From Haplodiscus bocki (lineage: Eukaryota): 64,000 bases of DNA. Of the stretch, positions 20,349 through 64,000 are shown piece by piece. The stretch covers positions 79,732,001 through 79,796,000 of the forward strand of contig OZ296658.1 of the NCBI GenBank assembly GCA_965655095.1. Reading direction: 5' to 3'. Each line of letters begins with the position of its first letter. The first letter of the stretch is position 1. The translations under genes and the position numbers were made by a program. The notes under the pieces are model-generated. The model made no database searches. It was given only the letters and a program-made list of their open reading frames with translations, and was not told where the DNA came from.

Positions 20349-20349
20349 C

Positions 20350-26946: not shown

Positions 26947-28442
26947 TGTGAAACATTCAAACTTACTCAAACACTTATTGTATCATTCACTTATTAATTC
27001 ATATTTAGGGATACGTAGTAGATACGTATCCACCTAGTACGTACCCATGTAATTTATGTGGACGATACGTAGTAGTTACGTATCGTCCCATAACATTTAT
27101 TTCATGTAAAAGCACGTATCCGATACGTGTAATTCTGGTGAATTGATCCTTATTGGGACGGAATAGATGCGGAACAAACGAATATTCACTGTACTTTTAT
27201 ATTAATTTTAGGTGCTATTTCATATAAGTAATCTATTTAATTATTATATAAATCCACTTTTTTGAATGTGCAGTAATCTATTTAGATTGACAGCTGTAAC
27301 AAGTTTTCATTGGCTTAACCATTAGAACAGAGATTGACTTTAAAAGTGAATATTTGTTCCGTATGTGTTCCGTCGTAACTAATCTGTTGACGTCACTAGT
27401 AGCCGCCACGGAACACTCCGGCCAAAGTGAGGCCTGTAATCATGAATCTTTTGAGACTATAAACCTTAATTTTCGTTACTTTAAGTTATTTTTCAACTGT
27501 ATTATTGTATTTATTCCCTGTATGGAAAGAACTTTGATCTTTTGTTTAAGTTATTATTTATGATGACGGCGCGGGAATAACCGCTTTGATGTCCATTTCC
27601 GACGGATCGGACCATACTTTTTTCTGTCGAAAGATGGAAAAGACGCGGCCCGTGAGGGAAGAAATGAACGGAAGGGTGTTTATTTCCCGCCAAAATCGGC
27701 ATCCCATTTCTTTGATAAATAATATGATTAAAGTACTTTTCCCTATTTGTACCTTGATCTGGCGTGTAAACAATTATGTTTCCCGCCAAGGAAAGGTATA
27801 AATAGAAGAAATAAAAGTACAAGTATTATTATATAAATTGTAGCCTTTCGGTTTGGTACTTTTATAGAATATTGCGACTGTTTAGTATTGTTGTTTTCTA
27901 AAATCAACTTCGGACTTTTATACGATTGGAACTTGATCCCTCATACCAAGAGGAAATTCATCAATTCTTAAAATACAAGATATAAATTCAGTCTTCATCA
28001 CTGACAAGATTTTTCCCCTCAAGAACTATGGCAACACTGAGAAACAAGAGAAAATTAGCGGCAGTGTCAAGAGAAACGCCCGACAGCAGTAGAGGCAGTA
28101 GAGGATGGAATGTACTTGACCCTGAGTTAACCCAGGATTACATCTCCCTGGTCTCCGAGGAGATTGAAGGGAGGGTAACTAAGAAACTGTCGAAGGAGTT
28201 TAACAAAACGGAGTCACATATCTTGGGTGCTCTATCGAAACTTGACGAGTTTCTCCTTAACCCACAAGTGCGGACTTATTCCGTATTTTAGGGAGCGTCT
28301 AGAAACGCTAACTCAGAAAACCGGGAAATTCATGGGGACCGCTCCTCAAACGATCCTTATCCCGAAGGGGGGTATTTTCCTCACCACTCAGGACAACTCA
28401 ACAGTTCTGAGGCAGACATGGTGACGGAACCCTATCCTCACA
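26947..28442 (+). mobile_element. Solo-LTR-like unit containing a gag-like N-terminal ORF (MATLRNKRKLAAVSRE..., 28028-28291)
   Basis: Ends TGTGA...TCACA. The ORF resembles a Gypsy gag N-terminus I recall from acoel repeats. PBS-like CA-TGGTGAC occurs at ~28418. The left boundary and TSD are uncertain. Confidence 0.5.
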
Positions 28443-28566
28443 ATTGCAATGAAGATCTTTAGAAATACTTTGTATGAAGCTAGTGCCAGTCACTGCTATG
28501 CTATTTTGAAAAATAAAATTCTAATTTTTTTGCGACCATTTTAGTTTTTTTTGGAATCAAATGTCG

Positions 28567-30080: not shown

Positions 30081-31797
30081 TGTGACGCCTGATCTACTCC
30101 GTTAATAACAATGGACAAAACCCGGGCATGCAGGGATACGCATTGCCCCTATTCGAAGATTAAACTGATAAAACTCTCATTAAATAAATTGCTGGATAAT
30201 TCCCCCCCCCTCATTTTTATAAAAAATAAGATATATATTTATATAATAATATATATACATATGCAATCCTACGCATATTTATGTACTTATGTGCAAAATC
30301 CATACCAATAGCTACCAAGCTAGTATCATTAGCGAACGGATATAAACAAATGCTTATAGTGCTTAATTAACTTGCAGTCTTATACTCAATTCTGATTGGT
30401 CAAAACAAGTATACTTGTCAAAATTTTGACCAAGCGACAGCGCTGCTGGAGAGTGGTCAAAAGTCGGTCACAAGGACCTAATTTTGACCACTTTGCTTAA
30501 GGCGAGTGGTCGCTTCTGAACAAAAGACGAAATACGGCAAAATGAAGTCGCAAATATCAAAGTTTGACTATATCTATTTAAAAGACGTTGCTATGTAATT
30601 ATATAAGTATATAATTATTTATTATGTGATGCTAAATTATCAAGTACTTTTTATTAGAAAATCCTAGGTGAAAATTAGTGGTTGGTCAAAAGACGGTCAT
30701 AATGCCCATCTTTTGACCACCATACCTTAATTTGAAGCCAAACTTGTGCATGAAGCCTTTCCATGATATAAACCATACATGCAAACATTATTTCTTGACC
30801 TGAAGCGTTTATCCAGATTTCGTAGCCATATTTTGACTGTCATGATTTTTCGGCATTCCCACCTTTGATGTTGAGTTTATTACTATATTTAAACTGACGC
30901 CATAATGATGATATATAGGATTCGGGTTAAGCCCTTTGATGTTTTGATTATAAATAGAATTGCGAACATGACGTCAGTAGATTGTGCCACCCAATTGGTC
31001 GACGAATGTTCGGTCAAACGAAGAAAAGGGTGACCCACAACCAATTGAAGAGCCACCACCAGAAGGAAGATTGCGATTCTAAAATACATTTCAATAAAAC
31101 ATTCATTCTGAGCTGATACCGTTTATTTTGGATTGTTTAAGCCCTCAACAAGCTTTGATTTGTAAATTGCCATCACGTTGTTATGTTGCCGTTAATATTA
31201 TAATCTCCAGTATAATTGATTTATTAAAATAAACATGGTTTCTACTCGCAAGAAAAGACAGTCAAATAGAAGTCTCCTCAGCCAATTAGATGACTTCGAT
31301 CAAGATATGATTATTGGCAACGCAGCTAGTGAAACACAAGGAAATACAGTGGTCATTGAAGGTACTGATGACCGAGACTTTACCGTTGGTAGTTCTAGTA
31401 ATAACACGGCGATTAATGAAAGTACGGTGAATGTGAAAACCTTGGAAAGGTGTTTTAATGAGAGGATTGACAGGGAAATGAACAATATTGTTGATACAGT
31501 TGGAGACAGGATACAGAATGCAATTTTGACTGCTATTGATAGCATTATTAGCAAAAATTGAATTAGCAATCAGGTCAATAAATGCATCTTCTGGACGGGA
31601 TGTGACTAGTGTGACTGCAAACTCAGAACGTGGGGAACATGTAAGGATTAATGCCTCTTTTGAAAACGCATCTGGAAACAACAATGTACTACATGTATCG
31701 AATGTAAATGATGAGACTCGACATAAAATTCCGGACGAGGTAAGTGAGTTGTCCGTCCCAGAAACATATTTCGACCGGCAACCACACACTCATCGCA
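30081..31797 (+). mobile_element. Solo-LTR-like unit containing a frameshifted gag-like N-terminal ORF (MVSTRKKRQSNR..., 31235-31805)
   Basis: Ends TGTGACG...CATCGCA with an imperfect 5 bp TSD (CCGCC/ACACC). The two ORFs 31235..31561 and 31536..31805 join by one frameshift and end at the right boundary. Confidence 0.5.
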
Positions 31798-32371
31798 ACA
31801 CCTAATCAACCACAAGGGCAAGGATTTCCAAGCCGAACAAGTTCAAGTAAAAGATGATTAAGGACAAACTATTTACTTCTTTCATCAGATTTTCTAATGG
31901 TTCGGTCAAATTAATAATTTTGTAACGAATTCTAGACGTTTAATCACACATTTTCTTGACGTGACTCAAATTCTTAAACTGGTTTTGAGCTAGCAAATTA
32001 GGCATTCTCAAGTTGAATGTGATCGCTTCCCCATTGTTTGGGTACATCCGCTTTCAGATTTTTGGTGTCTTTTTTATGACTTTAGGTCCGGCCACATTTT
32101 AACTTCTGGTGCTGATATCCACAGTCACCGAGTCCAAATATAGCGGGTATGAAGTTCATGTACTCTGGCATACGTGTAACATTGTGTTAGATCAATTTAT
32201 TGGCAAAAGTGTAGATTGAGGCGTTTAAAGATCCCTTAACATCTGTACCTAACCTAAGTTCACTTTCAGAAGGTCAAAATTGACCGCTTCTAGTTTTGTG
32301 TTATCAAACAAAGGATCATGACCGACTGAATGAGGTGAGCTGCGTTTGATCAAGGATGACTTTTCGGTTTA

Positions 32372-33985
32372 CAGTCTACCCTGGATAGAGCGTACCCCCG
32401 GTATAACGTAACCCTCTTTACAGCGTAACCCAACCCTCAGTCCCTGGTCCCAAACCGGACGATGCAATACTAATTCCGCCCGGGTATAACGTACCCTCTA
32501 TGTAAGGTAATTCTCTATACTACGTACCGCCACTGTGGACGCGAAGCGTAATGCGCCTATTGTTTTGCGGATGGATGTAGCGTACCGTGCACACTCAATT
32601 TGATTGGCTAAGCCGGCTTCCATTGTAATAGCGTACATGTAACCGCCAACTGGCTCGGCTTCCACTGTAACAGCGTACACGTTACCGCCAACCAGCTCAT
32701 CCTCCACCATGTTGGCGGCCGCCGTTAGAAAGAGAAATCAGCGGACTGTACAGGAAAAATACATGATTATTCAAGCCTAAGAACAACGAAAAACTGAGGT
32801 GGGAATTAAATCGACTCTTGGTCGAAAATTTGATTTACCAAGCATTAGTTCATTAAACAGCATTCTAGCAAAAAAAGGACAAGATTTAGCACAAGTTTAC
32901 TTTCAAATTTTACGATGCAGAGGAAGCGTTTTAAGTCGAGTACGTTTCCAGTAATTGATCAGGAGCTATACCAATGGTTCCTCCGAATGCGCACAATTAA
33001 TGTAGAGTTATCATGCGATTTATTGATTCATCAGGCCAAATTGATTGCTGCGTCCAAGAACGTCGATAATTTTAAGGCGAGCAAAGGTTACTTTGAGGGG
33101 TTCAAAAGTCGCTACAACATTGCTTTCAAAAAACTTCACGGAGAGGGTGCTGCTGTGAAGTTGTCGACGACTGGTTTGCTAAGATTCCACATCTTACAGC
33201 CGAATATACCACGAGCGACATTTTCAACTCATCCAAAAATTCAGCTTAAGAGTATTCGCTTGGTATTCTTTCCCCCAAATGTTATTTCGCGCTCTCAGCC
33301 TATGGATATGGGTGTCATTCATTCGCTAAAAACTAATTATAAGAATGGGCTCCAACAGCGAAGATTTCAGTTGCTGAACGTTGGTCTTGACGTCCATCCC
33401 ATCAACTTACTCGATGCCATTATTCTGTTAAAGAAAACAGGATTAGACGGCGTTGCGGCTTCTGTTATAGTTAACTGCTTCAGAAAAGCTGGATTCTCAA
33501 TGAACTTGCAGGAACCAGAAGTATTGTGTATCACCGATCAGGAAAACGACGAAGCCGAACCCGGTGTATACACTGATGACAGTTTGCTAACATCGGCCCC
33601 GATGTAGGGAGAAGACATTACTCTGCCTCCGGCATCTGTGACTGATCCCGAGAACCCAACTGAAGTTGTGGAAGGCGAGCAGGTGCCGGTCGAAATCACA
33701 GAAGTAGACGAAATCTCGGAGGTGATTGTGCCAAGCACACGCGAGGCATATTTGGCTGTGAATACGGCTCAAACCTTTTTTTTGAGCTTAGGTCAGGAAG
33801 AAGATGCTGCGGAAATTTCGAAATTTGTTGAAAAAGTTAATAGAATTGCTGGTGATTCGCTTAAGCAAACAACAATTGACAATTTCTTTTCAGACAAATT
33901 TTTCTCATTGGATATAGCGTAGGACTGGATATAACGTAACTTAGTTTTCGGTCCCCAGGGGGTTCGTTGTGTCCAGGGTAGACTG
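32372..33985 (+). mobile_element. pogo/Tigger-family (Tc1/mariner superfamily) DNA transposon, internally deleted
   Basis: Perfect 14 bp TIR CAGTCTACCCTGGA with TA duplications at 32370-32371 and 33986-33987. Subterminal TATAACGTA repeats occur at both ends. Confidence 0.92.
32720..33922 (+). pseudogene. CENP-B/Tigger-type transposase remnant
   Basis: CENP-B HTH (IDQELYQWFLRMR...FKASKGYFEGFKSRYNI), DDE_1 C-terminal motif FFPPNVISRSQPMDMGVIHSLK and the Tigger-type tail KQTTIDNFF. Contains frameshifts, a stop and a central deletion. Confidence 0.88.
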
Positions 33986-36900
33986 TATTCTCTATGTGGT
34001 TTTCGCGTTTCCCGCAAATTCTAAGCAAATTTTTCGTTGCACCCAGTGGGGTTGCGCAATTACGACTTTGTTTACCATCTGTATACTTGTGACGGGAGAA
34101 ATAGTTTATACCGAAAATTTAGTAAATTGAATATTCTGGAAATTCTGAACATTTATTAGTGCTATCAAGTGGAGAAAAACAAAAACCACGTGGTTCGGAA
34201 CAAGGTTTTCATAACAAGTCCTGCACATGTGAAAACCAACAACTTTTGGAATCTTATTCAAAAAAGTGAAACCACGTTAGTAGCTACGTCGTAGAATTTT
34301 GAAAAATATGATGAAAACTAGTGATTTTGTTCGTATACGTGTTGATATTAAATCCCATCCTGTTCACAATTCTTTCGACCATCTCTTTCCTTTTTTTATC
34401 ATTTCTCGGAAATCAGTCAGTGAATTGAATTGACATGCTTTAATTTTCTTTCATTACACACTACACTACACACGTGCTTTTCCAAAAAAAAACAATTCTT
34501 TCCGTAGTTTTATTATTGCCTCTCAATCTGAATGGTGCTTTGAGCCCACCCGTCTCCGCGCATAAAAATAGCTCTATGAAAACACCTCATCTACCTTGGG
34601 CACTAATTATGCAAATTTATCAAAAATGCGACGCCAGAAAAAATGGACACATGAAAAACCATTCACACATTCTATTGTCGACCTTTACTGATCAAATAAA
34701 TCCTTTTTAGTAATTGTTCCCTAGTTGAGCAAAAATGCATTTCTTGAAAGACTCTCGCCAGATTCGTCTCAAAATAAAATTGTTGCAAAAATTGTGCGAG
34801 ATAATGCATGTCGCTGAATGAGACGAGCTTCTGCGAGAGATGTAGAAGACAGTTTACAAGACATGTCTTGAACGGAAACGATATATGAAACACCAAAAAT
34901 TCATTTTCCAGCCTCTAAAATTAGAGGACAGGTCCCACTTCTACACAGAAATGCGCTCCAGCTTTTTAACGAGCAAAATGTTTTTACGATTTAATAGTAT
35001 TGAACATTTTGCCAATAACCAACTAATACTTAATCATTTTATTTGTCAAATTAGCTCCTAGTATTTGGCATACTAACTGCTATACCAGTGGAAAGAAATT
35101 GTAAACATTTCAAACGTTAACCATGTGTTTGTGGCATAGCATTTCACATTTTGAGTCCCGCCAGTTCAACGCGGACTGAAATCATGAAGTCCTAAATCAC
35201 CCATACAGTACGATTGAACATTATGTCGAGCTCATTTTTTGTGTCGTCGTTGCGCCACTATAAACAAAAGCGCACCTCTTGTCTACAGAGAGCAAAATTA
35301 ACTCAATCCAGTGAAATTAAATAGGTATCATTGTAGTATCAGCGCCAATAACCCGAATATTGTTATTGTACTAAAACAGATTTGATTCCGGCTAGCGCAA
35401 CGCATATTTGAATAGTTTTTCTGATTTGAACAAAAATTTGAACCTGTTTTTAAAATTTATGATTCTTGGAAGTATAAAAACAATGGTTTGTATTTCACTA
35501 GACAATTGAATAACAACTTTTCCCTGATTGTTCAAAATGTCAAATTTTAGAGTAGTATTTAGGAACTTCAACGTTTATACGGCATCGCTCTGAAAGGAAC
35601 CCTCCTGGAAAATTGCGCCAAGACTAACAAAAACAAGGAGCTTGTTCAGCCTGGAATGCGTTAAGCAGACACGCAACAAGAAACTTTTTTGCAAGCGCGG
35701 GTCTGGCAACGCAACTGAGACCTGCAAAAGAAACCGGGAGTATGATTCGTTGATGCTAGTATGGTTGCTAATAGCATAACAAAGTTACAACTTCACATTT
35801 CGTTTTTTTTTGATAAAGTATTTCCCACGGTTTGACAGAGTTGATTGTCGAATAATTAGTGGAACGTAATACTTTTGTGGTTGAACTTTTTAAAGCCTGC
35901 AGGAGCTTTTACATGGAAAACACACCATGGAGAAGCTCAAAATGTGGAAGACTCACCCTACTCTATATCTCTACAATTCCAAACAGAGACAGTCAGCTTA
36001 ACAGAAGAAGAAGTCGTTGAGATGTCTCTGCGAAAAAAAACAACGTAACTCGGAAATTGAAGGCTGAGATCAAGAAATCAGAAAATGCTATCCTAAAAGC
36101 TTTATATTTCTTGTCAGAGAATTCACTAAAGGCCAATATTGACGGCCCATATGCCAAAAAAGCGTCGGACAAAAACAGTATGGTCTGGGACCAATTGTAA
36201 TCTCGTAGGACTGACTAAAACGAAAACAATATTGGACTATTGGACCAAATGACATGTTTGACGATAACCGAGGAGAATCAAATAACAATGAAACCCTTGT
36301 GACATTTTTGTTTATCAATGCCTTTCTTGCAAGTTTTTTGCAGGCAACATTTTTCCTACAAAGTTTTCACAAGAATCTTGCAAGAAATATTTTATTTGCC
36401 AGATTGTAGCAAGAATGAGCAAGAATCTTTTTTCATCGGCTATGTTTTGATGTTTTCGTGTTTTGCTTGATCAAATTGTCTTTTGTTTTTTTTGAGGCTT
36501 TGTCTTGCTAAAAACACTCCTACGAGTTTTTGTTGAGGCTGCTAATTGTATTAGATCATGTAAGATACTAAGTGTTTGAAAACTGCCTAAGTTCAAGATG
36601 CATGCAGGTTTTGTAAAATTTCATAGTATCAAACAATTTTCGAATGATTTTTTATGATTCATATTAAACTTTCCATGCCTAAAGATTGCATGCTGTTGTA
36701 AAATGTTTCCATTTCTTTCCAAGACTTTTATAAATTAGGCGGGGTTTTATCGGTTGGTCTAAAAGTTTGGCAGACAAAAAATGAATAAAACTTTTGCAAG
36801 TTTTTGGATGCAGCTCAAAGGAATTTATTTGGGACCCACAAATTATCAATTTGGCCTTGCATTACAAGAAAGTGAACACTGAATAGGTTCATAGCTATCC

Positions 36901-49926: not shown

Positions 49927-51603
49927 ATTGTAATAGGACGGATGTCAGCAGTGTAGCAGCAGAAGAAGAAGGGGAAAGCGTCAGCATCGTCGCCATAGTA
50001 AAACTTCGGAATTTCACATTTAGTCAGTTTCGAGATGATCTCTAAAGAATGCTCAAACTTTATAACCAAGTTTTCATAACCAATCACGATTTTATAACCA
50101 ATCAAGACTTTCTAACCAATCAAATTTAATATAACCAATCAATGGACTGAACTTTTCTGAGTCGAGCGTTAATTTTGGGAGATGTTAAAAGAAATGTTGA
50201 CAGGAAGCTTCTGCTTTGGTTTGGAATCCTTCGCTGATTGTATTGTGTTTTGACTTTGACCTTCATGACTTTTGTTGTTTTCCAGAAGCTTTCCCAGTTT
50301 GGATACGGCTCCGGTTTGTTCAGGTGATTGCAGTAAAATGTTATCCAGCTGCTTGACTTTGGATGTAGACTGGCTGCATGCCTAGGAAAGCTTTTGTGAC
50401 GCAACCTGGATGCAATAGGTTGTTTTTGTGAAGGGGTATCATAAAGAAAACTTAAGATCATAAGTTTTGAACGTTTTTAATCGATTAACATGAGTTTAAA
50501 ATAAACATGAAGTCAACCGAAAGAGTTCCCGGGTTTACGTCTAAAGATTTTGTATATGCAACGTATTTGGTTGTCACAAAAGGTTTTAATAATGGTAAAC
50601 TCGAAAAACTATTCGGTGTATGCAAAGGAAGCATTGTGAAAGGAAATTTTCGGCGCTGCGCTTCACGGAAGATTTACGAAAAATCCCTAATAAAGATTCG
50701 CTAGAAAAAGCTAAAAATATCTGAAGTAAAACCCGATTTGCAATTGCAAGGCCCAATTTGTACATAAAAGGCTACTCTAATTGTTCGAAGACAAAGGAAA
50801 TTTCCTTTAATGATAATCTTATGTACTGATGTTTTTAAATTAGGAAGATTGTAGGGACTCAACGTCTCTATCATTTTTTGAAAATTCCGAAAATCAAGAT
50901 ATTGCAGTATTTTATCAATTTAAAAACTGCGGAGCTCCCAACATTTCAAAAGCTTTAAGCTTCGTTTCTACACAACACTGGACAGCACTGAACAAGAAAA
51001 GCTGAGGTTTGTGGTGATAAAGACTGGTAAATTTCACGTTCTTTGAAACAGAACTTATAAATATAAATTGTCTACAACAGCGCTAGTCAACGTTGGTTTG
51101 CTCTGGGACATCATCCTGGGTATAAACTGCATTAAAAAAGCTGCCAATTTTCAAAGTTTTTTCATGGAAGGGGATCCGAGCAGCGGATTTGTTTCGTTTT
51201 TCTATAAATTTATAACCTTGAGGACGAAAACTACTGAAAATAAAATTCAATGAAAAATGGAAAACTCAAAGGTTTCATCCACAAATGTATCGTATTGGCT
51301 CAGAACTGATTATTGTTGGAAGGAAAACATCCTTTACACAAATGTGTGAGGGAGTTCCCCCAATCATCTAATCAAAATGTCTTTGACTAGATTTGGTTGA
51401 TTTTTGATGCAGTTATTTTTAGGAGGGTTGGAAAACAATTCCCACACCTGTTTTGTGTAATCAATTAATTTATGTTCAAATAAAAACAGGCGTAACATTG
51501 GTATGAAATGGATCTATAGTGGAATAAAATTCAAAGATAAATTATTTTATGGCATTTAGTTTGGGGGCAGTACATGCTTCATACTTTCAATCTGTTGTTA
51601 TAG

Positions 51604-51810
51604 GCGTGCATAGATAGTATAGACAGAGAAATCAGAGCTCTGGACCAGAGAATTGAGAAGGAGAAAGAAAAAGCTGCAGCTGCAAATATCAACATTTTAT
51701 TTTCCTCTTCCTCAGTTCAACTTCCCACACATAATTTACCGGAGCAAGTCCCCCTTTCGTCGTCTTTTTCTTTACCTGCATCGTATATCGACACATTCTC
51801 TCTTCTACAG
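51604..51810 (+). CDS. Host gene exon absent from the ORF track (ACIDSIDREIRALDQRIEKEKEKAAA...FSLLQ)
   Basis: gttgttatag acceptor and CAG|GTGAGA donor. 207 nt, open, phase 0-0, with a coiled-coil N-half. Confidence 0.8.
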
Positions 51811-54800
51811 GTGAGAACACTGATTTTTTCACTGATTCATACCTTTTTCAAAATCCTTTCCCCATTTACGTGCCTGAAGTAATAACAATTTAGCGATGAT
51901 GACAAATATGCCGAAATAGGAGTGCACGAAAACGCATGCAGATGTCATGCACTTGCAGCCATACATGGACCAGGTCGCTGCTAAAGTGAACGAAACCAAA
52001 GAAAGCTTTGATTATTATAAAACTGTCAGTTTATTGAACGGCCACTAGCAATTTTCTCGGAGTTTTGACTCAATCATATCAACACGATGCAAAAAAAATT
52101 GATGAATGTTATAAAAAATCCCTGCGCTACCTAAACATCTGACGTGCTTATAATCTTTTGGTTACTTTTAAAATGTTATTCTCTACAAACTAAGCCTGAA
52201 TGGTTAATCTAACAAACGTTTCAACGAATTTTATCGCAACACTGTCTCATTCGTTTCCATTCCATTTGTTTCCTAAGATTAAAACAGATGCATCAAAGAA
52301 CCTATTCCTAGGGTTCACGCCAAGGATTTCTCAAAAAAGCAAGAGAACCCTGCAATCAAAATTTACTGGAAACTTCGGTGCTTTCGGGATTTGACATCAA
52401 GCTAAGGATTTGAATTTAAAGAATGTATTTCCAAAAAACACCGACGTTCAAATGTTTTCTACCGAAAACCAATCGAGAAATTTCGTTATGACAACCAAAA
52501 CGTAGTATATATTAGATTGACGTTTCGTTGTTTTGCTCATGGAAATTTTTCAGACTCATATATTTGGACCGACGACTCAAATTAGACAGAACGTTTGCGA
52601 AGAAGCCAAAATGAGCTCAAATTTCAAAGTTTTTACCAAAAATTCTATCGAAAAGTTTTTTTTCCATGGAATGAAATATTAGTATGACAAAAAACTAAAT
52701 CCTCTCTTTAAGCTGTTGCTTTTCAAAAGCGACTTCAACGCTTATACGCGAAAATACGCGATTTTTAAAATAACAGTGGATTGACAAAAAAACTGAAAAC
52801 AGCGCCTTTTCCACGTTTTCTCTTACGGAAAACATATGTAATTTTTGAATGACTGCAACTAAAATTTAATACGTTGTAGATTAGAGCCTTACCGTAACGT
52901 TTCTGTAAGGGCTAAACAAATCCGTTGAGCAGGTTTAGAGATGTGGCCTTCAAACAAAGATTTTCGAGCTTAAAAGGGAACGAAAAAAATTCGAAAGTTA
53001 CCAGAGTTGTTGCCTAAAAAGGCTAGAAAACTAGCAGTATCATGAGTATCATGAAGTGATTAGTTGAACTCAACGATTTCATTTAATTTTTTTTGCGATT
53101 TTCACCAACTTGAAAGCTGCATCGTAAGAAGTCGACTGATTTGTTTCTGCCTTAAAGATTTTACCTTGCAAAGTTTTGCTTGACATTTTGATTTCAAAAA
53201 GCGTAGCGGCAGGGTGGTTTCTTTTGTCATTGTGATGCCGAACTATGAAAAAAAATCAAAGTTTCGACTAAAGTACCAAGTACGTCAGATGCAACGTTGG
53301 TTGAATAAAACGAAAACTGGATTTGCAGTTTATGGGCTTTTTGGCCTATCAAGCTCTCAACCTTACTAAATTGAACTAGATACATTTTACAAACAGCTGC
53401 CAATGAAGACCTTGATGGAACAAAACTAACGCGATAATTCTGGCGAGAAACAGGAGTCCATGTGGTTGATAATAAAGATTAAAAACAAGTATTGGGTTGT
53501 GGGATTATCAGGAATCGGACGAGTGGCAGAGAGTTTCATTTAATCATCTTTCACAATCAGATTGCCGTTGCTAAAGTTCTTGATGCAGAAGATCAAGCCG
53601 CTAGTTTCGGGTGAATAAGATTTTGTTGACGTCCAAATTTAGTACCATTTGCAACTTTTGGTGTATTCGCATCATGAAAAAAAACTGTTGATTGGGATAT
53701 TGATGGAAGTCCTCCAGTTGGTTATGTTGGCGAAAGTTAGGTCTGCAAAATCGTCGAAGTAAAGTAATCATGCCAATTGTTGGTATCGTAGGGCTACCAG
53801 AATTCCAATTGAAGACGCAAATATGGTAAAATGTTGAATGGGAAGTTTTGTTTAGTTAGTAGATTGTTCTTTGGATAGTGATTTTCACAATCCAGTTGAT
53901 CGTGATGGTGAAAGTTGAGTATGAATATTGCAAAATTCGAAACTATTGAAATTCTTTGGTCTTTTCGATATGTCAGGATTCGCATGGAAGATAGTTTTTT
54001 GATAATGGTTGATTTCAAAGGGCTTTCGAGAGTGAAAAAATTCAGTTTTGAGAGCCTGTTGGATGTAATCGAGCCGGTAGTTAGGCCAAAAACTGAATGT
54101 TCATACCGCATAGAACTACTATTCGGAGCATTTTCCGGAAAAGTCGGTCCATCAAGACTCCGATGCCAGACGAGCTATATCAGAATGCTTTTCAACTTGG
54201 GTTCATGGCGATTGGGACCCTGATGGATGTAATACAGCCTGTTTTTAAGGCAGTAGTTGGGATTAAATAACATTGAAAACTGTTATTGATGGCATTTTTG
54301 CAGTTTTTTGGGCCTTTCAGATTTCAGAAGCAAAATTAAAATTGGTGACGACCTTTTTGTCAATGCTGCAACAAGTGGACTTTCTGGAATGTACTCAACT
54401 TGTCGAAAAAATTAAATCAGTAATTTTGGGGAAATGAAAGTTCGAAAATCGATTACAGTCGAAGCGGAACTTTTTTGCTTTGTTCGGCCTATCAAGGTTC
54501 CAACGCAACAGTGAAATAAAACAAATTTTTCTATGAAATTTTGTATTAACAGCCCGCTACGACCGGCGGTTTTTGCGCCCTGCAATTTTGTTGAAGACGA
54601 CCTTCAAAAAGAAAAAAAACTTTTCATTTCAAAAAAAACTTACTTAAAATAATTACTGATTCTTCCATTTTGAGTTTTTTCTGATTTTTTTTCCAAAAAA
54701 CAATTCAGGTGGAAAAGATTTTTTGGAGGAACACTATCATTTGATGAGCATTTCACAGCATATTTGCCACCTTTTAGAAATTTTGAAAGAACAAAGACTT

Positions 54801-55699
54801 TTTCTTGAAAAGTAACTGACTTTGAACCTCTAGAGAAATCTTGCTTTTTCAGTCGCTTTTCAGGGCGAATAGGTTAAAAATTTGTGATGAAAATAATTCA
54901 CGGTCAAAATTGTCATTTTTTTCATTTTCAGACACTGACATTTGGAAGAAGTTATCAATTGGCAAGTAGGCGTGAAAAAACATAGGAATTGTGCGTTTTG
55001 AGTGGACAATATCCCTTCCATACTTCAAATATGGGTGGAAAAGAATACCACGTTCAGAGTACCAATGGCTGTTAAGTTTCTTTTGCGAATTTTAAATGTT
55101 CGCTGTTCACTTAGATTCTTTAGATATGTAGTTGTTTTGACTTAATTGTGGAGGGGGCTGGGAGGAGAATGAGAAATATCTTCAGTCTTTAGAGTAGCAA
55201 ATCTTGCTTTCTGATCCAGTAAAAGCTCAATGCCCTTTCAGAAAACCCAACATTATGTCCTAATGCAGTCAAAACGTTTTTATTTTCCTAAGTTGAACAA
55301 TACGAAATAAATTACTCCCTCAGAGATTGTAGAGGTTGTAGATCCGCGAGTATTCTCTAGTAACTTCTCCTCTTCATAACTCTTATCGTCCGTAATAATT
55401 ATCTCAATATCTAACTGGTCAATAACAACGACTGCAAATAATCCGTTAATGGTCAGTACAAAGAAGGTTTCGATTCTCACTCCGACCAAACTTTTCACAA
55501 CGTATTTCCCTATTTCATAGAAGTTTTCAAAAAAAATTTTCTTGTGAAAACAACAGAAATTTTAACTCTTGAAACACGAGAAACTTCCCCTTTTTCGTGC
55601 AAAAATGTGTGTCAGAAATTTTTTGGTCTGTTTGAAGTAGCCTGATTGAGCTTCAAAAAGTTTCAAAGCATTGGAAAAATCCGAAAAGGTAAATAATAT

Positions 55700-55900
55700 A
55701 GTACATTGCAGATACACAAGTTACCCTCGCTATCGCTCGTGCCACTAGTGTATCTGACAATATACCCGCTCGCTCGTTCGGTTTGCTCTCTCACCGGCTC
55801 GTTCGCTTTCAACTCACATCGCCTCTCGCTTATAATATTGCTCGGCTTCACCTCGCCTGTTTTGTCATCATCACAAACGTTAAAATTCATTTATTTTTTC
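55700..55900. repeat. Putative Polinton terminal inverted repeat (one end only)
   Basis: Abrupt GC-richer block starting with AG, which is the Polinton terminal dinucleotide. Candidate 6 bp TSD TAATAT at 55694-55699. The partner end is not in the window. Confidence 0.5.
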
Positions 55901-56224
55901 TTCTCCACTAAGAAAAAGTTCAGCGTCATTTTTCCATTCAACTAATAAAAAATTCATACACATTCACTTTTTCCAGCTGCATAATAAAAAATTCGTCTAC
56001 AAAATTTTAGGTCATTGTATTCCCGCGAACAAAACCCCAATCAAATGTTTTGTAAATGTTCTAGCTCGATCAAATGTTCTAGCTAAAACAAATGAAAATG
56101 AAATTGTTCTGTTAAGATTTCTTTTTATTGGATAATCTTCTTTCGTAATATCTTGTATTTCTTTGTCCACGTATGATGTCTTTTTTAGATTTGTCGTTAA
56201 TTGTGACGTGCTTTGTTTTTTCGT

Positions 56225-56540
56225 TTCGTTTTTACATTTCTGTGTCAAAGCAAACAACTTATCAATTACATTTTCAAATGGATTTATCTCAAAATTTTTT
56301 CTATAAATAACACCTTGATATAACTGAACTACTTTACCTCCAATTTTAACATTTTTTTGAATATCAACAGTTGTTAAAACCTGTGTTATATATCCATTTC
56401 TCATACGACTAAGTTCAATTTTCTTTACTTTCTCTTTAACGTGTAGATGTTGAACGATTAAATCTTTTGGGTTATAATATTTAATTTTTAAAATTGCACT
56501 TCCTTGAGAAAAAGTTTTAGTATTGAATTTTTCAACAAAT
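56225..56540 (-). pseudogene. Protein-primed family B DNA polymerase fragment (between motifs A and B)
   Basis: FVEKFNTKTFSQGSAILKIKYYNPKDLIVQHLHVKEKV...GYITQVLTTVDI...GGKVVQLYQGVIY...FENVIDKLFALTQKCKNE resembles the pPolB segment leading into KxxxNSxYG. Both catalytic motifs are absent. Confidence 0.65.
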
Positions 56541-57121
56541 TAGGTCCCTCTTCATTTATTTTGAATAGATTGGCCTTAATGAATTGAAGTTGATAATCTA
56601 GGAAATTAAACTTAATTCTTTTTCGTTGATGAACTTCTTTCAATAACGGCTGAGTGTTTTTTTAATTAAATGCTTCTCTTAATTCTTCGTCTTTGGATAC
56701 ATCAAATAAACAAATTGCTTCGACATGATCGATCTCAATATTCGACCAATTCATTTCTGGAGTCATCTGGTACTCTATCCGTTTTCTATATGTCTCAATA
56801 CCAATTCCTAAAATTTCTTTCATTGATGATTGTTTTGGCATACCTTTTAAAGATGTATAAATCCTATTTCTTGTAATACTACTTATCCGAATTTTAACAC
56901 CTGTTTCTCGTTTGTTTTTGAGATGTATGTTTCTTTTTTCTTCATTTTGTTCATTATATTTTTTAATTTTTACTACTTTTTCATTATAATAATTTTCTCT
57001 ACAGAGCTTGCAAATAGGGCTTAATCCATCTTTTCTATTTTTATCTTCATTGAAATTTTCTATCACTTGTATAACTTCACATCTACAACATTTCTTAAAA
57101 GTTTCATTTTGAGTTACTCAT
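56541..57121 (-). pseudogene. Zn-finger plus HNH endonuclease
   Basis: N-terminal KKCCRC...F...KDGLSPICKLC and C-terminal MNWSNIEIDHV..ICLFD...EAFN*KNTQPL, as in the giant-virus/phage IDH...NxQPL HNH family. A frameshift lies near the start and a stop at 56662. Confidence 0.8.
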
Positions 57122-57150
57122 TTGTATTAATAAGTTTTATTCAAATGATT

Positions 57151-57589
57151 TCACATTACTTTTAATCTAAGACCAGCAACTGAGTGCATGTCTGTGAGTG
57201 ATAAAATCTTACCTCCTGTTAATGATTTTAAAACACCATTCGTAACTTGAGCTGATTGAGGATTCTTTGTCTTCGCGGCCACTGCAGCTGATATCAGTGG
57301 TGTAGCCATTTTTAAACCTGGTTTAATAAAACTATCCCAAGCTTTTTTCGTTCCTCAGAAAGTTTTCTGTAGTTTACTTTTAATCGGTCCACCTTCAAGC
57401 ATATATTGCCTCGGAGTAAAGGTGATTTTCTTCTGGCAACCACATTTAAGATTGGGACATTTATCATGTAGTTTTAATATATTACCCTTACTATTTAAAT
57501 CAGTCCATGCTGAATTTGACATAGATGAACCGTGAATATTTTTGAATTTACCTCTTGTAATAAAATCTTCTTTAGTTCTCTCTTCTCAT
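57151..57589 (-). pseudogene. Virion core or membrane-lytic-like protein with adenain consensus sites
   Basis: Manual translation: ...LHDKCPNLKCGCQKKITFTPRQYMLEGG/PIKSKLQKTF*GTKKAWDSFIKPGLKMATPLISAAVAAKTK...LKSLTGG/KILSL. One frameshift and one stop. Confidence 0.55.
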
Positions 57590-57748
57590 TTACTCAGTAA
57601 AAATTTGCGATTTCTTACGACCGCAAATATCACAAGTACCCTGGATAATTTTAGCTAGTTTCTCAGTCATAGGATTGACTTTTTCACATTGAGTTATTTT
57701 ATTAGTATTACTATAATGTTTCCCGCCAACACACCATGTCTTTGTCAT
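57590..57748 (-). CDS. Small Zn-ribbon-like protein, 52 aa (DUF5679-like)
   Basis: Intact MTKTWCVGGKHYS...IIQGTCDICGRKKSQIFTE*. It is below the ORF-track cutoff. Confidence 0.65.
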   Translation of the reverse strand: MTKTWCVGGKHYSNTNKITQCEKVNPMTEKLAKIIQGTCDICGRKKSQIFTE

Positions 57749-57853
57749 TTAACTATTGAAAATCTGAAGAATCGGGAGGAGCAGAGGGTTCATAAATTTT
57801 TAATTTCTCTTTTCTAGGTTTAAACAAATTAAATTTAAAATATTTGTTTACAT

Positions 57854-58470
57854 TCACATTATTTTTGGTAAAAAATTATTTAATTTAATTATTTGTTCCT
57901 GACTAAAATTATCTTTACTTATAACATCACCAAATACATCTTCTACTTTGAATTGGGTAATCTTCATAATTTCTTTTCTTTTATCAATATCTTGATTATA
58001 AGTCTTTTTCAATTCCTGTGCTTCCTTTTCATCAGTTTTTTTTTATCTATCATCGATTGTTTCAAAGTCTTTTCATATAGCAATGTAATAACATTAATTC
58101 AATCGCGTAATTTTGTATATCGTATCTTCAATTTTGATATGTACTCATTAGTGATTAAGATAGCAATACTAGTTAATAAAGCTGTGCTAGATGAAATAAT
58201 AATACCCGCACCAGGATTGACTAATCCCATTGTTGAGGAACCAACAGCAATTCCAGTACCAACAAGTATTTCGGTGATAATCAATAATACTTTCTTTTTA
58301 TTTAAATTTTTATATTTCTTCTTATATTATTCGTTATCAATTTTAAGACTCTTTAATATATTTTCGTGATCGTGTTTTTCCGTTTGATATTTCAAATTTC
58401 TTATCTCATCATCTCTTGTTTTTAATTTTAATAATTCTGGTTCAATATTTAAATTTGGTTAAGTCGTCAT
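57854..58470 (-). pseudogene. Hydrophobic-hairpin membrane protein (GasderminX-like class of adintovirus proteins)
   Basis: A basic run, then two hydrophobic helices (VLLIITEILVGTGIAVG; GIIISSSTALLTSIAILI), then a helical C-terminus (SMIDKK.DEKEAQELKK.Y). Three in-frame stops. Confidence 0.6.
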
Positions 58471-58736
58471 TTATTAACAGAAAAATAAAATTTTATACAA
58501 TTATAATTGTATTGATTGATCTGAAAATTGTTTTTCTAACAGATCCAGAGCAATAATTTCTTTAAGATTACGTTTTCTGTGTAATTTCTCAAGAGCGACA
58601 TTTTTAAAAACCTCTATTTGATGATCTAGAAATTTGCTCTGTCTTAATATATCTGGTTCTACTATTGAGAGTAAAAACATTAGCGATCGTTCATGTCTAT
58701 TATCTTTAAAAAAGCTATCGAAGTATTAATCCCTTT

Positions 58737-58977
58737 ACTTATTCAAAAACTTTTCCAAAATAGATTCTTCTTGATTTTTAATATGATCTGAGTACTCTTC
58801 ATTCAATTCAAGTGAGATGTTTTTAAATTCTTTATATAGAAAATTAATATCACCTTTTAAAAATCCACATTCGTATAAAAAATTAACATCATTTTTAATT
58901 GAGAACATTAATAAGACAATCTTTCTATAATCTGGTAATGATTCAAATAAATCTATAAACTAATTTACATTATTCAT
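58737..58977 (-). pseudogene. Small unknown viral ORF (FIDLFESLPDYRKIVLLMF...ILEKFLNK)
   Basis: TAAATG start, one early stop, otherwise open for ~80 codons. Confidence 0.45.
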
Positions 58978-59384
58978 TTAAGATATAGATATTTACAATT
59001 ATAAAACTTCTATATTAATATAATACTCATACAAGTATATTCGAATACGTATTATTATACCATATCGATTAATTATAATTAGACACAATTTCTTTTGAAC
59101 AAGCGTACTTACACAATACTAATTATTACTTATAGTTAGGTATACTTACAAATATACAAGTAATTATACAATCATAGAATTTATGTGAATGTATAATTGA
59201 ATGAGTACTTTTACTTAGGTATACTTACAAATATAACTTTTGGATATGATCAAATCTATGACTACATATACTAGGGTAAACTTACAACTATAAGAGAAGT
59301 TATACAATCATAGAAATAATGTGATAGTACAATTATACGAGTACATATACTTAGGTATACATACAATTGTATGAGTAGGTGTTT

Positions 59385-60720
59385 TATTTGATATACAGAA
59401 TGTGTTATTCTTATATTACTGAAGCACATATCTGCATGAGGTGTATCTATCTGTTCATAAATTAGTTTGATACCATATTTCTCCACAGTAAAATTTAGAT
59501 TAACCAATGTCCATTGAGTTGGTGAATCACTATGTCGATTTTTTTAAGTATTTTATATCTAGTTGACCAAGTATTATCTTCAAGAAGAATCTGTACTCTG
59601 AAACGACCCATAGATTTCAATGAATCAATAGTCAGATTCAAAAATCTATTATAACAGAATGTTATATTAGTGATTTGAATAATATCAGTTCTTTCCCAAC
59701 TAACAAAAACCCTATTATGACCGTGGTTATCACCGGATGTCTCGATATACATGAATACACTACAGATTGGAGGCAAAGTCGTCTCTCCACTATTTCCTGT
59801 CGGTGATTTTGTTCTCGTTGTTCTTTTAAAATTGTTTATTTTACCATTTTTATTTTTATTGTTACATATACATTTCCAATAAGGCAACACCACTGATCCA
59901 ATATTACCTAGTCTTGTCACTGTTGTATCAGTTATCTGTATTTTGTTGTATTCGGTAAGATTATATGTATCATTGCCGACAGAGACTTTGAGATAATTTT
60001 CTAATGTTTGATTGAATCTAACTACTGTATTTTTATCTGATTCATCATCAATATATTTTTTGTTTGCTATATCATTATCTAAACTAGGATTTGTATTAAC
60101 AGTGATACTATCTAAATTTGTTAATTTTTTATTATTGAGATCATTTTCTTGCTTGTTTTTTTTTACTAAATCTACTTCTTCATTATAAAAAGACAATCCT
60201 AAATCTCTTCTATTTCTTTCGTTATCATTGTGAAATTGATCTACATAAGCCTTAGCAATGAGTTGATTATCATTAACTGCTTGACTATTGAAGGTAATAC
60301 TATTTATATTAGTTAAGCTATAATTATTGAAATCATTATCCTGAAAATTTCTAACTAATGATTCCTCGTCTATAGCATTATCGACATAAAACTTTCGTGT
60401 TAAATGAGAATCGATCTGGGGCCATTGGTTTACCTGAATAAATCTAGCGTTTGTGATGTTTCTGTCTTTCAGATCTATATGAGCAGTGTTTTTTATACTA
60501 GGATCGTTGAATAAATTATCAACGTATTTTTTTGAAGTTGCTTCTCCTATGCTAATATGATCAGTTAAATTTTATTTCTAAATTGATTTTTTAAGTCAAT
60601 GTCTTCTTCAATATTAGCTTCTCTATAATTATGTCTTAGATAATGTTTTTGTAGAAATAAACTTGTGTCAATTTTGTTATCAGAGTTATTTGAAGAGTTT
60701 CCAAATACAATTATTGGCGT
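59385..60720 (-). pseudogene. Fibre-like protein: four KxYVD shaft repeats plus a C-terminal MAM-like domain
   Basis: The start appears mutated (ACG), with frameshifts at ~60567 and ~59545. Repeats ATSKKYVD, LTRKFYVD, IAKAYVD and IANKKYID. The C-terminus reads FMYIETS...ITFCY...MGRFRV...QWTLVNL...ADMCFSNIRI. Confidence 0.7.
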
Positions 60721-60866
60721 TATTTAAAAGATGTATATTTACAACTATACATCTTGTATTGATATTTATTTTTGTACAAATACAAAGACATATTTAATAA
60801 ACAGAATGTGATTATATGTGGATACTTGTAATCATACTAAGGTATTCTTACAATTATATGTGTATT

Positions 60867-61266
60867 TTATTCAAATACGAGTTTAAGAATTGTATCGTAA
60901 TAATTCATTCTTTCAATTATATAGAAAAAGTGCAAACAATATGAGCCACATAATTTAGAATTTATATCTTGTATTTTATAATTATGATATAATATTGTTT
61001 CAGGTGATTGTTTAAGTGAAAATTTATCAGGTTGACCACCAATTGAGTGAAAGTGGTATGATTTTTTATTTTCAACGTAAAAGGCTGTCCAGTGACTCCC
61101 ACCCTTTCTTCCATCGTCTATATTAACAAATCCTTTATTAGAATACATTTTTGCATCTCTAGGATAAATAGGATAATTATAAATTTTCTGTCATTGAGAT
61201 TCATTCATAGTATCATTTTCTAAATTACATTTTTTTCAAATAATCTTTAAAATATAAAACTTTCAT
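60867..61266 (-). pseudogene. Adenain-like (Ulp1/C5-type) capsid maturation protease
   Basis: VNID...GGSHW (catalytic His), HFHSIG (normally YFDSFG) and IQDINSKLCGSYC (oxyanion Gln, catalytic Cys). A frameshift and a stop lie in the N-terminal part. Confidence 0.88.
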
Positions 61267-61679
61267 ATTTGTACCAATAAAATTATAATTACACTTATTA
61301 TTCTTATATGGAGATTTGTAATTACACCTCATTGATCCATAGCAATTAGAAATAAGATAATTTATTCATATAAGTACAAAACATGAATAAATACTTTTAT
61401 ACGAGTGTTTATACTTAAGTATACTTACAATTATATGAGTAGTTATACAATCACAGATTTTTCGCGATACAAAAAATTGTATGAGTACTTATAGTTAGGT
61501 ATACATACAATTATATGAGTAGATATTATAGTTAATATTCGAATATGAGTGATTATATGGTATCGAATGTTCATATTTTTAAAACATGGATACGTACAAT
61601 TGAACGAGTAGTTATAGAATCATAGAGATGTTGTAATACATACAATTATATGAGTATATGTACTAAGGTATATTTACAA

Positions 61680-62972
61680 TTATATAACTCTAATTTCAAT
61701 GAGCTTATTACCGTCTGATATCACTTCTATTTTTCTTCGTCTAATTAGTATTAGAAAAAAACTTGCTTTCTCAAGATCAGCACCATATTCCAAGATTAGT
61801 TGAGTTTTTTTAGGTGTTATATGATCAGATTGATGTCCTAAATCTATTATTTCAGTAAGGTATTTTGTTTTCATATCAGGATAAGATATAAATGGAGTCA
61901 TTAATTGTTCGCCGATATATTCTTTGAAAAATAATTTTAAATCTTTATACCGCTCAATATAATCATTTTGCGCATAATTCATAAGAGAACTGTCTGTAGG
62001 ATATCGTTGACCATCTATCTCGACGTAATACTTCCGAAGATCAAGATTATCGATTATAGAGACATTTTTAGTTGATATGGGAGTATCTATTCTATGATTC
62101 GTTTGGTGGGCACCGATCAGATATTTAGGACTTCGAACATTTTGAGAACTTCCGATATCAAGTTGAGTAATTGTATCCGATATGATACGTCTTTCTGTAA
62201 ACCATTCATCATATGATATCTTGTAATTTTTTTGAGTCGCTTCATTGAACACTACTTGAGTTTCAAGAGATGGTATAAAATTTGGTACATATAGATACAA
62301 ATTATTAATAGTCACATTTATATCATCAGTCATAGATGTAAATATGATATCCTGTGAGTCATTTGTTTTAAACGTCAGATGAAAGCCTAAATTTTTAGTT
62401 ACCTTTTTAAAAGCTTTACAGATTGCGAAGATATCTTCTAAATATAGATATCCTTTTATTTTGCTTTTGTTCGCATAGGTATGATTGATTATCAACATTT
62501 TCTGTTGAGGTCTATCTCTAATTTGAGGTGGTAAGTCTGTAAGCCTCTCGAGAAGTGGTATATCATTTTCGTTAAAATTATCAAATTGAGATAATAAATC
62601 ACCATCTTTATTTGATATCGCTCTCATAATGGTAGATATTTGCCCACAAACTTTATTAATTTCAAAATCACCACCGATTGAAGTGGCTAAACGAGCTTCT
62701 TTAAAACAAAATGCAAAAGCGTTATTTACTAAGCGAAGAGGGTCATCATTATGAAAATTTGTATTATCATTTTTTCGTCCTGTAATATTAAATTCTAAAT
62801 AAGCATTACCTATCTGATGATAATTATTGTTTTCACCGAAAATAAACGCAATATTTTGATCTGATTGAAGTAATTGATCTCCTTGTCGGTGGTATTTTTT
62901 CGTAAAATCTCTTTTAATAATACTATTATCAAGTGGTTCATTATCTATTAATTGCAAATCTTCTAAGGTCAT
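61680..62972 (-). CDS. Double-jelly-roll major capsid protein (Polinton PY / hexon-like), intact 430 aa
   Basis: Size, position between penton and protease, and motifs (DNSII..., AYLEFNIT, LVNNAFAFCFKEARL, LYLYVP, PKYLIGAHQ, YVEIDGQRYP, YKDLKLFFKEY, IIDL) are typical of Polinton MCPs. Confidence 0.88.
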   Translation of the reverse strand: MTLEDLQLIDNEPLDNSIIKRDFTKKYHRQGDQLLQSDQNIAFIFGENNNYHQIGNAYLEFNITGRKNDNTNFHNDDPLRLVNNAFAFCFKEARLATSIGGDFEINKVCGQISTIMRAISNKDGDLLSQFDNFNENDIPLLERLTDLPPQIRDRPQQKMLIINHTYANKSKIKGYLYLEDIFAICKAFKKVTKNLGFHLTFKTNDSQDIIFTSMTDDINVTINNLYLYVPNFIPSLETQVVFNEATQKNYKISYDEWFTERRIISDTITQLDIGSSQNVRSPKYLIGAHQTNHRIDTPISTKNVSIIDNLDLRKYYVEIDGQRYPTDSSLMNYAQNDYIERYKDLKLFFKEYIGEQLMTPFISYPDMKTKYLTEIIDLGHQSDHITPKKTQLILEYGADLEKASFFLILIRRRKIEVISDGNKLIEIRVI

Positions 62973-63010
62973 TTATATAAAATAAAATACTCATATATGT
63001 GTAAGAATAT

Positions 63011-63199
63011 CTAGGTATAAGTACTCATATATGTGTAAGTATTCTTATTTCTATTCAACAAAGCCATTGCCTGATAATAATTTTTGTTTAATTGATTGTA
63101 GATGTGCCTTAATGTTGATTTAGTATTGTTCACTTCTTGTTTAATTTTAGGTTTGTGTTTATTACAATGTATTCTCGATTTTATTAAACTTTTATGCAT
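63011..63199 (-). CDS. Small basic viral protein, 62 aa
   Basis: TAAATG start, K/N/H-rich, and fills the gap between penton and MCP. Confidence 0.5.
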   Translation of the reverse strand: MHKSLIKSRIHCNKHKPKIKQEVNNTKSTLRHIYNQLNKNYYQAMALLNRNKNTYTYMSTYT

Positions 63200-63215
63200 T
63201 TATAATAAAAAAATT

Positions 63216-64000
63216 TCATATTTCTTTGGTTGATAAACGAAAAGTCATACTTTGACCGTTGAATGATACTATTTGATTATTTTCGTTTTTTAATTTGAAA
63301 CAAAAACTTGAAACAATATCTTTGCTTTCCATCATATAATATAACACTCCACCTCGAAATTTCTCAATGTATTTGTAACCAGGATCAACATCCATAAAAC
63401 CATAGTAAAATTATGAATAATACCAGTTCGTTTCCCTTTAAAAATCTTTCGTTTTGCAATATCAGTTTCAATGAAAACATTATCAAATGATAAAACATCA
63501 ACGGGATTATTAGATGGGGTATATTCTTCATATAATGTTCTAGCTTGAAATCCTAAAAGATCTCTCATACTATCGTCAAACATGAAACTGATTATCGGTC
63601 CTTGTGGTGATATTTCTATAATACTACCGAGAGTTGAAAAATTTGGTTTGATTGTGAATGGGTAATTTGCTTCAGTGTAATGTTCTTCATGAATAATAAT
63701 CCTCTTGATTTCATTGTTCGAACTTCCGATTTCGTAAGCGCCTGGCGGTTTTGTTGTTTTAACAACTCCTTCTTCGTTAGTAATTGTTTTCTTGAAATAA
63801 ACTTTGTTATTCTCGTTTGTAACATTAAAAATGCCGTTATGAGCAGTTAGAAAAGTGATAGCTATTTTAAATTATTTATTATTAGTTTGTCATGTTTGAG
63901 ATAGATTTTCTTCGTGAGCTGATTTATCTATAACTATCAACACATGCTGTTCTATTTTAGGTCTAGTATTAAATGCTATTTGCTCTAAAAGTTTACTTGG
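63216..64000 (-). pseudogene. Minor capsid protein (penton, single jelly roll)
   Basis: Manual translation NGIFNVTNENNKVYF...PPGAYEI...RDLLGF...PVDVLSFDNVFIETD...G..TGIIHNF..DVDPGYKYIE...LKNENNQIVSFNGQSMTFRL. Two stops and an ~8 nt duplication frameshift near 63400. Confidence 0.85.

Follow-up and report, generated by a model that had tools for sequence, protein, structure and literature searches.

A decayed Polinton/Maverick insertion in Haplodiscus bocki and its probable place in a high-copy family

Results and discussion

A capsid gene array at the right edge of the window

The last part of a 64,000-nt stretch of the Haplodiscus bocki assembly GCA_965655095.1 (contig OZ296658.1, positions 79,732,001 to 79,796,000 of the forward strand, here called the window) is densely packed with virus-like reading frames, raising the questions of what kind of element it is, how well it is preserved and how it relates to other copies. 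We found that positions 55700-64000 of the window hold the left-hand portion of an inserted Polinton/Maverick (adintovirus type), which continues past the right end of the window. The element is real, endogenous and of a known kind; very probably it is a single dead copy in the chromosome, belonging to a Polinton/Maverick family with many copies. The genes form a co-directional array, all on the minus strand, from 64000 down to ~56000, and GC content drops from 0.35 to 0.27 at ~55880. From right to left the array consists of a penton, a 62-aa open reading frame (ORF), the major capsid protein (MCP), a protease, a large repeat-bearing ORF, one or two small ORFs, a membrane-like gene, a Zn-ribbon ORF, a core-like gene, an HNH-like gene and a polymerase remnant. 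A first-pass annotation of the same DNA had claimed such a minus-strand array of virion genes, and both its presence and its order were borne out.

Capsid, penton and polymerase genes

The MCP gene (61680-62972) is an intact ORF of 430 aa matching PF21738 above the Pfam cut-off (E=3.5e-7, 30.2 bits against 27), a family also carried by 119 of its 120 best relatives, and its top match in the Atlas is a double-jelly-roll (DJR) cluster (0.98). For fold comparison we used a model built from 146 sequences, an earlier one from 42 near-identical copies having been rejected (pLDDT 31). The best eight VIA-align rows were all capsid or scaffold proteins of the DJR lineage (Z 7.1-7.7, rmsd 3.8-5.1, 154-185 residues aligned), comprising faustovirus, PBCV-1, EhV-201, the orf scaffold, Sputnik, ASFV and mavirus, with an unrelated human protein following at rank 9 (Z 6.5). 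All four Foldseek matches to the PDB at E<=0.001 were PBCV-1 Vp54 or vaccinia D13, while the list from BFVD mixed capsids with unrelated proteins and held an adintovirus capsid at rank 29. The predicted DJR fold of the MCP was therefore upheld by PF21738 and by the fold matches for the first jelly roll; for the second, putative jelly roll the evidence is the Pfam match. Searches of the MCP and two MCP profiles against PDB sequences returned nothing relevant, and tblastn of the MCP against phage genomes gave no match. A scan of prokaryotic genomes yielded one locus of 44 stretches (35 % identity over 38 aa, GC 0.50), a weak match with no blastn likeness to the element, which we took as chance.

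One gene upstream of the MCP, positions 63216-64000 encode a penton or minor capsid protein (PX) whose start lies beyond the window. Compared by eye and unscored, it follows the published alignment of Polinton PX proteins through their N- to C-terminal motifs and comes closest to the Polinton-4_NV PX of Nematostella vectensis (PMC4028283 Fig. S2). Its neighbours in the Atlas include clusters with Adeno_Penton_B (18 % of members) and DUF5901 (26 %), which serve as leads only, and PDB sequences contained nothing relevant. The likeness to the PX alignments, the position and the Atlas lead together support the penton call. The gene is broken by stops at 63892 and 63874 and by a frame change near 63400. 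The 62-aa ORF between penton and MCP (63011-63199) had sub-threshold Pfam matches only.

At the opposite end of the array, positions 56225-56539 hold a remnant of a protein-primed DNA polymerase B (pPolB), corresponding approximately to residues 708-811 of ~1083, with both flanks deleted; ~105 of ~1083 codons are left. We found 500 longer relatives among 1417 candidates, and PF03175 is present in 119 of the best 120, confirming the assignment made in the first-pass annotation; identity to PF03175 relatives is ~75 % over 104 aa in the best matches. Eleven of these 120 are full length (1012-1085 aa), with motifs A and B in all eleven and motif C in eight, at approximately residues 675, 822 and 921 respectively. 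The remnant falls between motifs A and B and contains none of the three. A full-length polymerase had no relevant relative among PDB sequences, and a tblastn search of phage genomes gave four weak matches to Methanosarcina spherical virus only. The adjoining HNH or endonuclease VII-like gene (56540-57121), which has paired CxxC motifs and is broken near its start and at 56664, matches PHROG 1035 endonuclease VII (E=3.5e-8) and PHROG 2340 (E=1.1e-5), so that this call was confirmed as well. The HNH gene stops directly at the remnant, so most of the polymerase must have been deleted.

A large family of relatives

We found 1134 relatives of the MCP among 4521 candidates. The best 120, all from ENA, are 77-86 % identical to it and lie on 120 contigs of distinct size (median 132 kb). 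Clustering at 50 % gave 1676 MCP matches; among the best 150 of these a single one is at least 400 aa long and the median is 177 aa, as expected of fragments. Six contig sizes are common to the best 120 MCP and best 120 polymerase relatives, two of them with polymerases >1000 aa, and more complete copies of the family may exist. The family possesses a PF03175 polymerase of full length (~1083 aa), a penton of Polinton type and a DJR capsid protein, and its relatives are found on many long contigs. A further full-length capsid relative of 410 aa (P0126), 43 % identical to the window MCP and matching PF21738 at E=2.4e-19, belongs by its sequence to another lineage with this capsid type, one more distantly related.

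The tree of 121 MCP sequences is star-like, with a terminal branch length of 4.14 against 0.70 for internal branches and support of at least 0.95 at 12 of 118 nodes. The 846 residues found rarely in the alignment average a BLOSUM score of -0.47, and the 76 that are shared average +0.48 (P=3e-6). The shape of the tree and the radical nature of the rare residues fit a history in which a few constrained subfamilies inserted in bursts and the copies then decayed neutrally. The window MCP is an outlier, its nearest neighbour being 86 % identical compared with a median of 96 % for the other copies, which suggests that the window copy is older or derives from another species. Rare residues number 40 in the window MCP, and 55 % of these score below zero in BLOSUM, whereas the other copies average 8.4 (maximum 27).

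Following established Polinton biology, the active ancestor would have been a linear DNA copied by protein priming from its terminal repeats and packed in an icosahedral capsid, with a core protein matured by the protease, cutting at LxGG sites, and germ-line insertion carried out by an integrase of retroviral type. Many copies would then have arisen in one or a few bursts, each decaying independently.

The state of the polymerase raises the alternative that its deletions predate the insertion, the window copy having already been a non-autonomous derivative that intact relatives mobilised in trans. Both deletions hit the polymerase while the candidate terminus and the virion genes were kept, full-length polymerases exist in the family, and non-autonomous Polintons (with names containing N1) are listed in PMC4028283 Table S1. 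However, neither the in-frame tail that follows the junction nor the neighbouring frames are found in any of the 120 polymerase relatives (proteins of at least 308 aa were searched); the two zebrafish N1 elements in the same Table S1 also lack the capsid genes that the window copy keeps. We consider this explanation unlikely, although it deserves to be taken seriously.

A repeated 10-mer in the gene spacers

A 10-mer is repeated in one direction in four of the gene spacers of the element. The sequence TACAATTATA or its complement occurs nine times exactly within the element, eight of them in one orientation, and is absent from the 55.7-kb flank; when one mismatch is allowed there are 19 gene-sense copies in the element, 17 of which are intergenic, against none in the same orientation and six in the opposite orientation in the flank. 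Read on the coding strand as TATAATTGTA with at most one mismatch, it is present in nine copies in the spacer at 58976-59395 (shuffle mean 0.18, maximum 2 in 500), in three copies at 60700-60870 (mean 0.08, maximum 2 in 500) and in five copies at 61263-61690 (mean 0.17, maximum 2 in 500), the first of which overlaps the MCP stop codon. The fourth spacer has one copy and three other spacers none; these counts all come from one copy of the element.

Most probably the 10-mer serves the element itself as a signal, either at gene ends or as a promoter. As all genes are co-directional the two roles are inseparable, although a role at gene ends is slightly favoured because the 10-mer overlaps or closely follows four stop codons. 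Hairpin-type gene-end signals are a feature of Mimivirus and Sputnik. They were not supported here, since the spacers contain six palindromes against a shuffle mean of 3.6 and maximum of 8, and one of the seven strongly folding windows (z<=-2.5, among 166) falls in a spacer, although decay could have eroded such signals. Our literature search found promoter work on virophages and on Polinton-like viruses (PLVs) only, and none on spacer motifs of animal Polintons, for which the motif offers a testable candidate transcription signal.

Repeats also lie around the MCP gene. Just upstream of it, at 62986-63039, a 16-bp near-palindromic repeat is present in three copies, inverted relative to a repeat block at 61467-61521 (76 % over 55 nt). 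Given this resemblance, related repeats flank the MCP.

The left end and the route of integration

As the first-pass annotation had stated, TAATAT (55694-55699) stands directly before AGT at 55700, where it would be the left copy of a target site duplication (TSD). The candidate left terminus, or remnant of a terminal inverted repeat (TIR), spans 55700-55880 and consists of AGTACA, an imperfect hairpin (55701-55765) and a GC- and CpG-rich GCTC tract, with GC contents of 0.52 and 0.39 compared with 0.27 inside the element. The hairpin is present in both the minimum free energy and the centroid structures (z=-4.3 for the 100-nt window, -1.15 for the whole 211 nt), and 20 of 5590 windows of 80 nt score as high, making it uncommon, not unique. 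The left end is a reasonable TIR candidate, and the segment could be a separate small element. A parvovirus or bidnavirus origin, which the hairpin might suggest, was rejected in view of the DJR capsid. There was no Rfam match in 50000-64000. The hairpin and the one-directional 10-mer are the two details of the element that lack an explanation.

Taken together these details could denote a distinct lineage of animal Polintons, with hairpin-capped ends replacing the plain (AGT)2, possibly without an integrase of its own, with TATAATTGTA units ending or starting its virion-gene transcripts, and with >1000 copies in a little-studied group of marine invertebrates, intact particle-forming members among them. 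We regard this combination as improbable; if true, it would provide a host animal that can be reared in the laboratory and with it a direct view of Polinton virions and their gene control.

The hairpin also bears on the possibility that the element is not a classical Polinton and instead an integrase-less virus of PLV type that entered by another route, with an integrase supplied in trans or by repair at the hairpin end. A feature of PLVs is that rve and pPolB are replaced by a tyrosine recombinase or primase-helicase. We found no recombinase or helicase in the visible part of the element (Pfam, PHROG), in which pPolB is present, and neither an integrase nor any other domain above the Pfam cut-off in 16 further ORFs from 51800-58400. 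That 8.3 kb could be surveyed without an integrase or packaging ATPase is in keeping with a PLV-type origin, and pPolB-bearing PLVs without detectable integrase have been described, including one that is integrated in the genome of a beetle (PMC11296320). However, the element runs off the window, so that the absence of these genes is uninformative, the penton resembles Repbase Polinton PX proteins, and rve and FtsK are reported on nearly all animal contigs >10 kb carrying adenain and PolB (PMC8502044). A PLV-type origin is on this evidence decidedly improbable.

Decay of the window copy and weight of the evidence

Eight of ~12 genes are broken (penton, protease, fibre-like, the ORF at 58977, membrane-like, core-like, HNH and polymerase), and by eye we counted ~16 stops or frame changes in ~4.4 kb of non-MCP genes. 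Such degradation is common, being reported for 96 % of vertebrate Polinton loci (PMC8097293). The window copy is unable to replicate or to build a particle by itself, and probably persists owing to its antisense position in what would be a long, repeat-filled intron. The description of the element as a near-complete virion module was therefore overstated: penton, protease, fibre-like, membrane-like and core-like genes all have stops or frame changes, and "near-complete" fits the gene content, not the coding capacity. What stands of the proposed Polinton/adintovirus-like virus is its capsid, penton and polymerase, and the proposed poorly characterised lineage holds insofar as no named close relative was found.

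Several observations weigh against reading the segment as a dead copy of a high-copy Polinton/Maverick family. No integrase, ATPase, right TIR or second TSD copy was seen in the window, past whose end at 64000 the element continues, and AGTACA agrees at four of six bases with the published (AGT)2, one of the TIR end motifs of Polintons alongside (AG)3 and (AC)3A, and has no second copy in the window. The Atlas recognition values of the MCP (1921 and 1982) are below the tool's 2300 mark. Its structural model has a mean pLDDT of 53, with a usable first half and residues 249-414 mostly <50; the fold comparison covers the first jelly roll only, and Z<8 can reflect a common arrangement. The MCP tree and BLOSUM figures come from the best 120 of 1134 relatives, which favours intact copies, and the alignment columns are non-independent. 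An exon scan of 51815-64000 gave no candidate above 2.7, although its power is too low to establish the intron, as the candidate host exon at 51604 scored 2.9 and exons seen by eye at 38732 and 43397 were outside the top 14. Finally, the MCP has no breaks where ~4.7 would be expected from the other genes (P ~0.01 before allowing for selection).

This last point would also be explained if the capsid gene had been taken over by the host, for instance to act in interference, leaving the MCP alone open. The probability of finding no stop is 0.01-0.15 at 3-7 % neutral divergence. However, the rare residues of the window MCP are mostly radical, as in decay, the fibre-like gene too is open over 1 kb of its length, and windows with a readable MCP are those that get reported. 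Given these residues and the tendency of scans to pick readable capsids, we rate co-option as highly improbable. That the segment is a contaminant or a mis-joined contig of a free virus is suggested by the sharp GC step but is extremely improbable in view of its heavy decay, which is at odds with a live virus, the spread of the best 120 MCP relatives over as many long contigs, and the lack of phage matches and weakness of the single prokaryotic one.

Comparison with known elements

With the Polintons/Mavericks (polintoviruses) described in PMC4028283 the element shares a DJR capsid, a PX penton one gene from the MCP, a putative adenain-like protease and pPolB in an AT-rich, gene-dense array, the PX likeness extending, by eye and unscored, to the Nasonia/Tribolium type. 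With the adintoviruses Alpha and Beta, as characterised in PMC8502044, it has in common an animal-associated PolB (pfam03175), hexon, penton and a putative adenain, and degraded endogenised copies are described there. It differs from Polintons in that a free-standing HNH gene adjoins the polymerase, and in its visible part no integrase, ATPase, TIR pair or TSD is seen.

Adintoviruses have distinct accessory genes, PLA2X in Alpha and GasderminX and Cupiennin in Beta. We found no Pfam match for PLA2X, GasderminX or an OTU domain in the 17 ORFs of the window copy, which is broken and partial, or in six full-length relatives. The OTU-like domain of adintoviruses lies at the N-terminus of PolB; Pfam gave no OTU match in the polymerases of these six, and OTU was detected in PMC8502044 as a predicted structural similarity. 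As the PF03175 score is modest (50-80 bits), the choice between Alpha and Beta adintovirus was left undecided.

Vertebrate Mavericks resemble the element in being mostly degraded and in having ends that mostly begin with AG or AGT (PMC8097293), the end motif here being AGTACA followed by a hairpin. Per genome they have a median of 8 copies and a maximum of 287 (PMC8097293), whereas the present family has >1000 capsid clusters over an unspecified number of genomes. Comparable, by description and not by sequence, are the coral expansions and the acoel Mavericks: polintoviruses of stony corals are reported in hundreds to thousands of paralogous copies (bioRxiv 10.1101/2023.10.06.561300), and Mavericks make up 4.5 % of the genome of the acoel Praesagittifera (PMC6451197). 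Integrase-linked pPolB1 is listed for Xenacoelomorpha in PMC10748475 Table S3 in 28 rows, which amount to 14 loci entered under two accessions with the same coordinates. Within openly accessible literature we found genome papers and no study of acoel Polintons.

As one fossil among many the single copy has little weight, and the family is more useful. More than 1000 dated decay products together with some full-length capsid and polymerase genes are enough to part selection during spread from neutral decay, and intact members, if active, would be informative on whether animal Polintons make virions, a matter not yet settled.

Remaining genes of the array

The putative adenain-like cysteine protease (60867-61266), broken near its start, matches PF00770 weakly and below the cut-off (E=0.02, 15 bits against 21.3). 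It has a His motif at 61097 and a Cys motif at 60950; the catalytic triad is incomplete in the window copy, and no relative was found among PDB sequences. The next gene (~59390-60723) is a large ORF with short YVD-type repeats, two frame changes and no clear start. Its "fibre-like" label found no support, with no match in Pfam, NCBIfam or phage genomes (tblastn) and PHROG matches at E>=0.11 only. One or two small ORFs with in-frame stops (58501-58977) have no family match in Pfam or PHROG.

The membrane-protein-like gene (57854-58470) is hydrophobic over a stretch at its centre and is interrupted by three stops and one frame change. Databases offered no support for a membrane label, all matches being weak (E>=0.0046) and below cut-off; the gene may resemble Maverick PW. 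Between this gene and the Zn-ribbon ORF a short broken frame contains a PSAP motif (57777-57788, minus strand), which we take to be of the TSG101/ESCRT late-domain type; no other P[ST]AP occurs in any of the three minus frames. The Zn-ribbon ORF (57590-57748) is open over 52 aa and has a weak match to DUF5679 below the cut-off (E=0.0083). For the basic core-like protein (57151-57589), broken near its start and at 57357, no family match reached the cut-off. No search backed the core label, but the ORF does contain the only two [MLI]xGG motifs encoded in the minus frames (all three considered), at 57399 and 57222. These are adenain-type LxGG sites, in line with the cleavage consensus of adenain.

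Host gene and surroundings

It is plausible that the element lies inside a host intron, antisense to the host gene. Upstream of it a candidate host exon of 207 bp (51604-51810, plus strand) is open and bounded by AG and GT, and ends in a donor, CAG|GTGAGA, as had been claimed. This exon would belong to the large host gene at 2-6800. That a plus-strand host gene is real is indicated by the protein P0271, the only relative found, which matches both the ORF at 2-4321 (49 % over 374 aa) and the exon at ~6418 (76 % over 25 aa) and has the two pieces contiguous, without the intron. The gene (2-4321 and 6418-6800, plus strand) includes a giant low-complexity exon of >1370 codons, and had no Pfam domain in the exons scanned; a coiled-coil motif in its second exon may relate it to PHLDB/LL5 proteins. 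An assembly gap of 978 N (6859-7836) lies inside the gene.

The flank contains further repeats and transposons. Its GC content of ~0.36 is close to the 36.7 % of Symsagittifera, a weak pointer to an acoel flatworm, to which the look of the repeats may also point. A tandem array of a 31-bp repeat rich in GGCGTTAACGGCG occupies 11850-12165, and a direct duplication (~15600-18800 and ~20300-23500) has a spacing of ~4.71 kb and 87-97 % identity in 300-nt blocks. Two decayed plus-strand ORFs (27986-28460 and 31220-31800) resemble the starts of retroelement ORF1 or gag, with no Pfam match above the cut-off. Between host exon and element, strong GC skew and fragmentary frames at 53200-54450 suggest a decayed transposase, for which Pfam gave no match. 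A transposon of Tc5/DDE_1 (pogo/Tigger) type is found at 32370-33987 on the plus strand, with HTH_Tnp_Tc5 (E=2.9e-12) and DDE_1 (E=5.8e-10) domains and 30-bp inverted repeats at 32370 and 33958.

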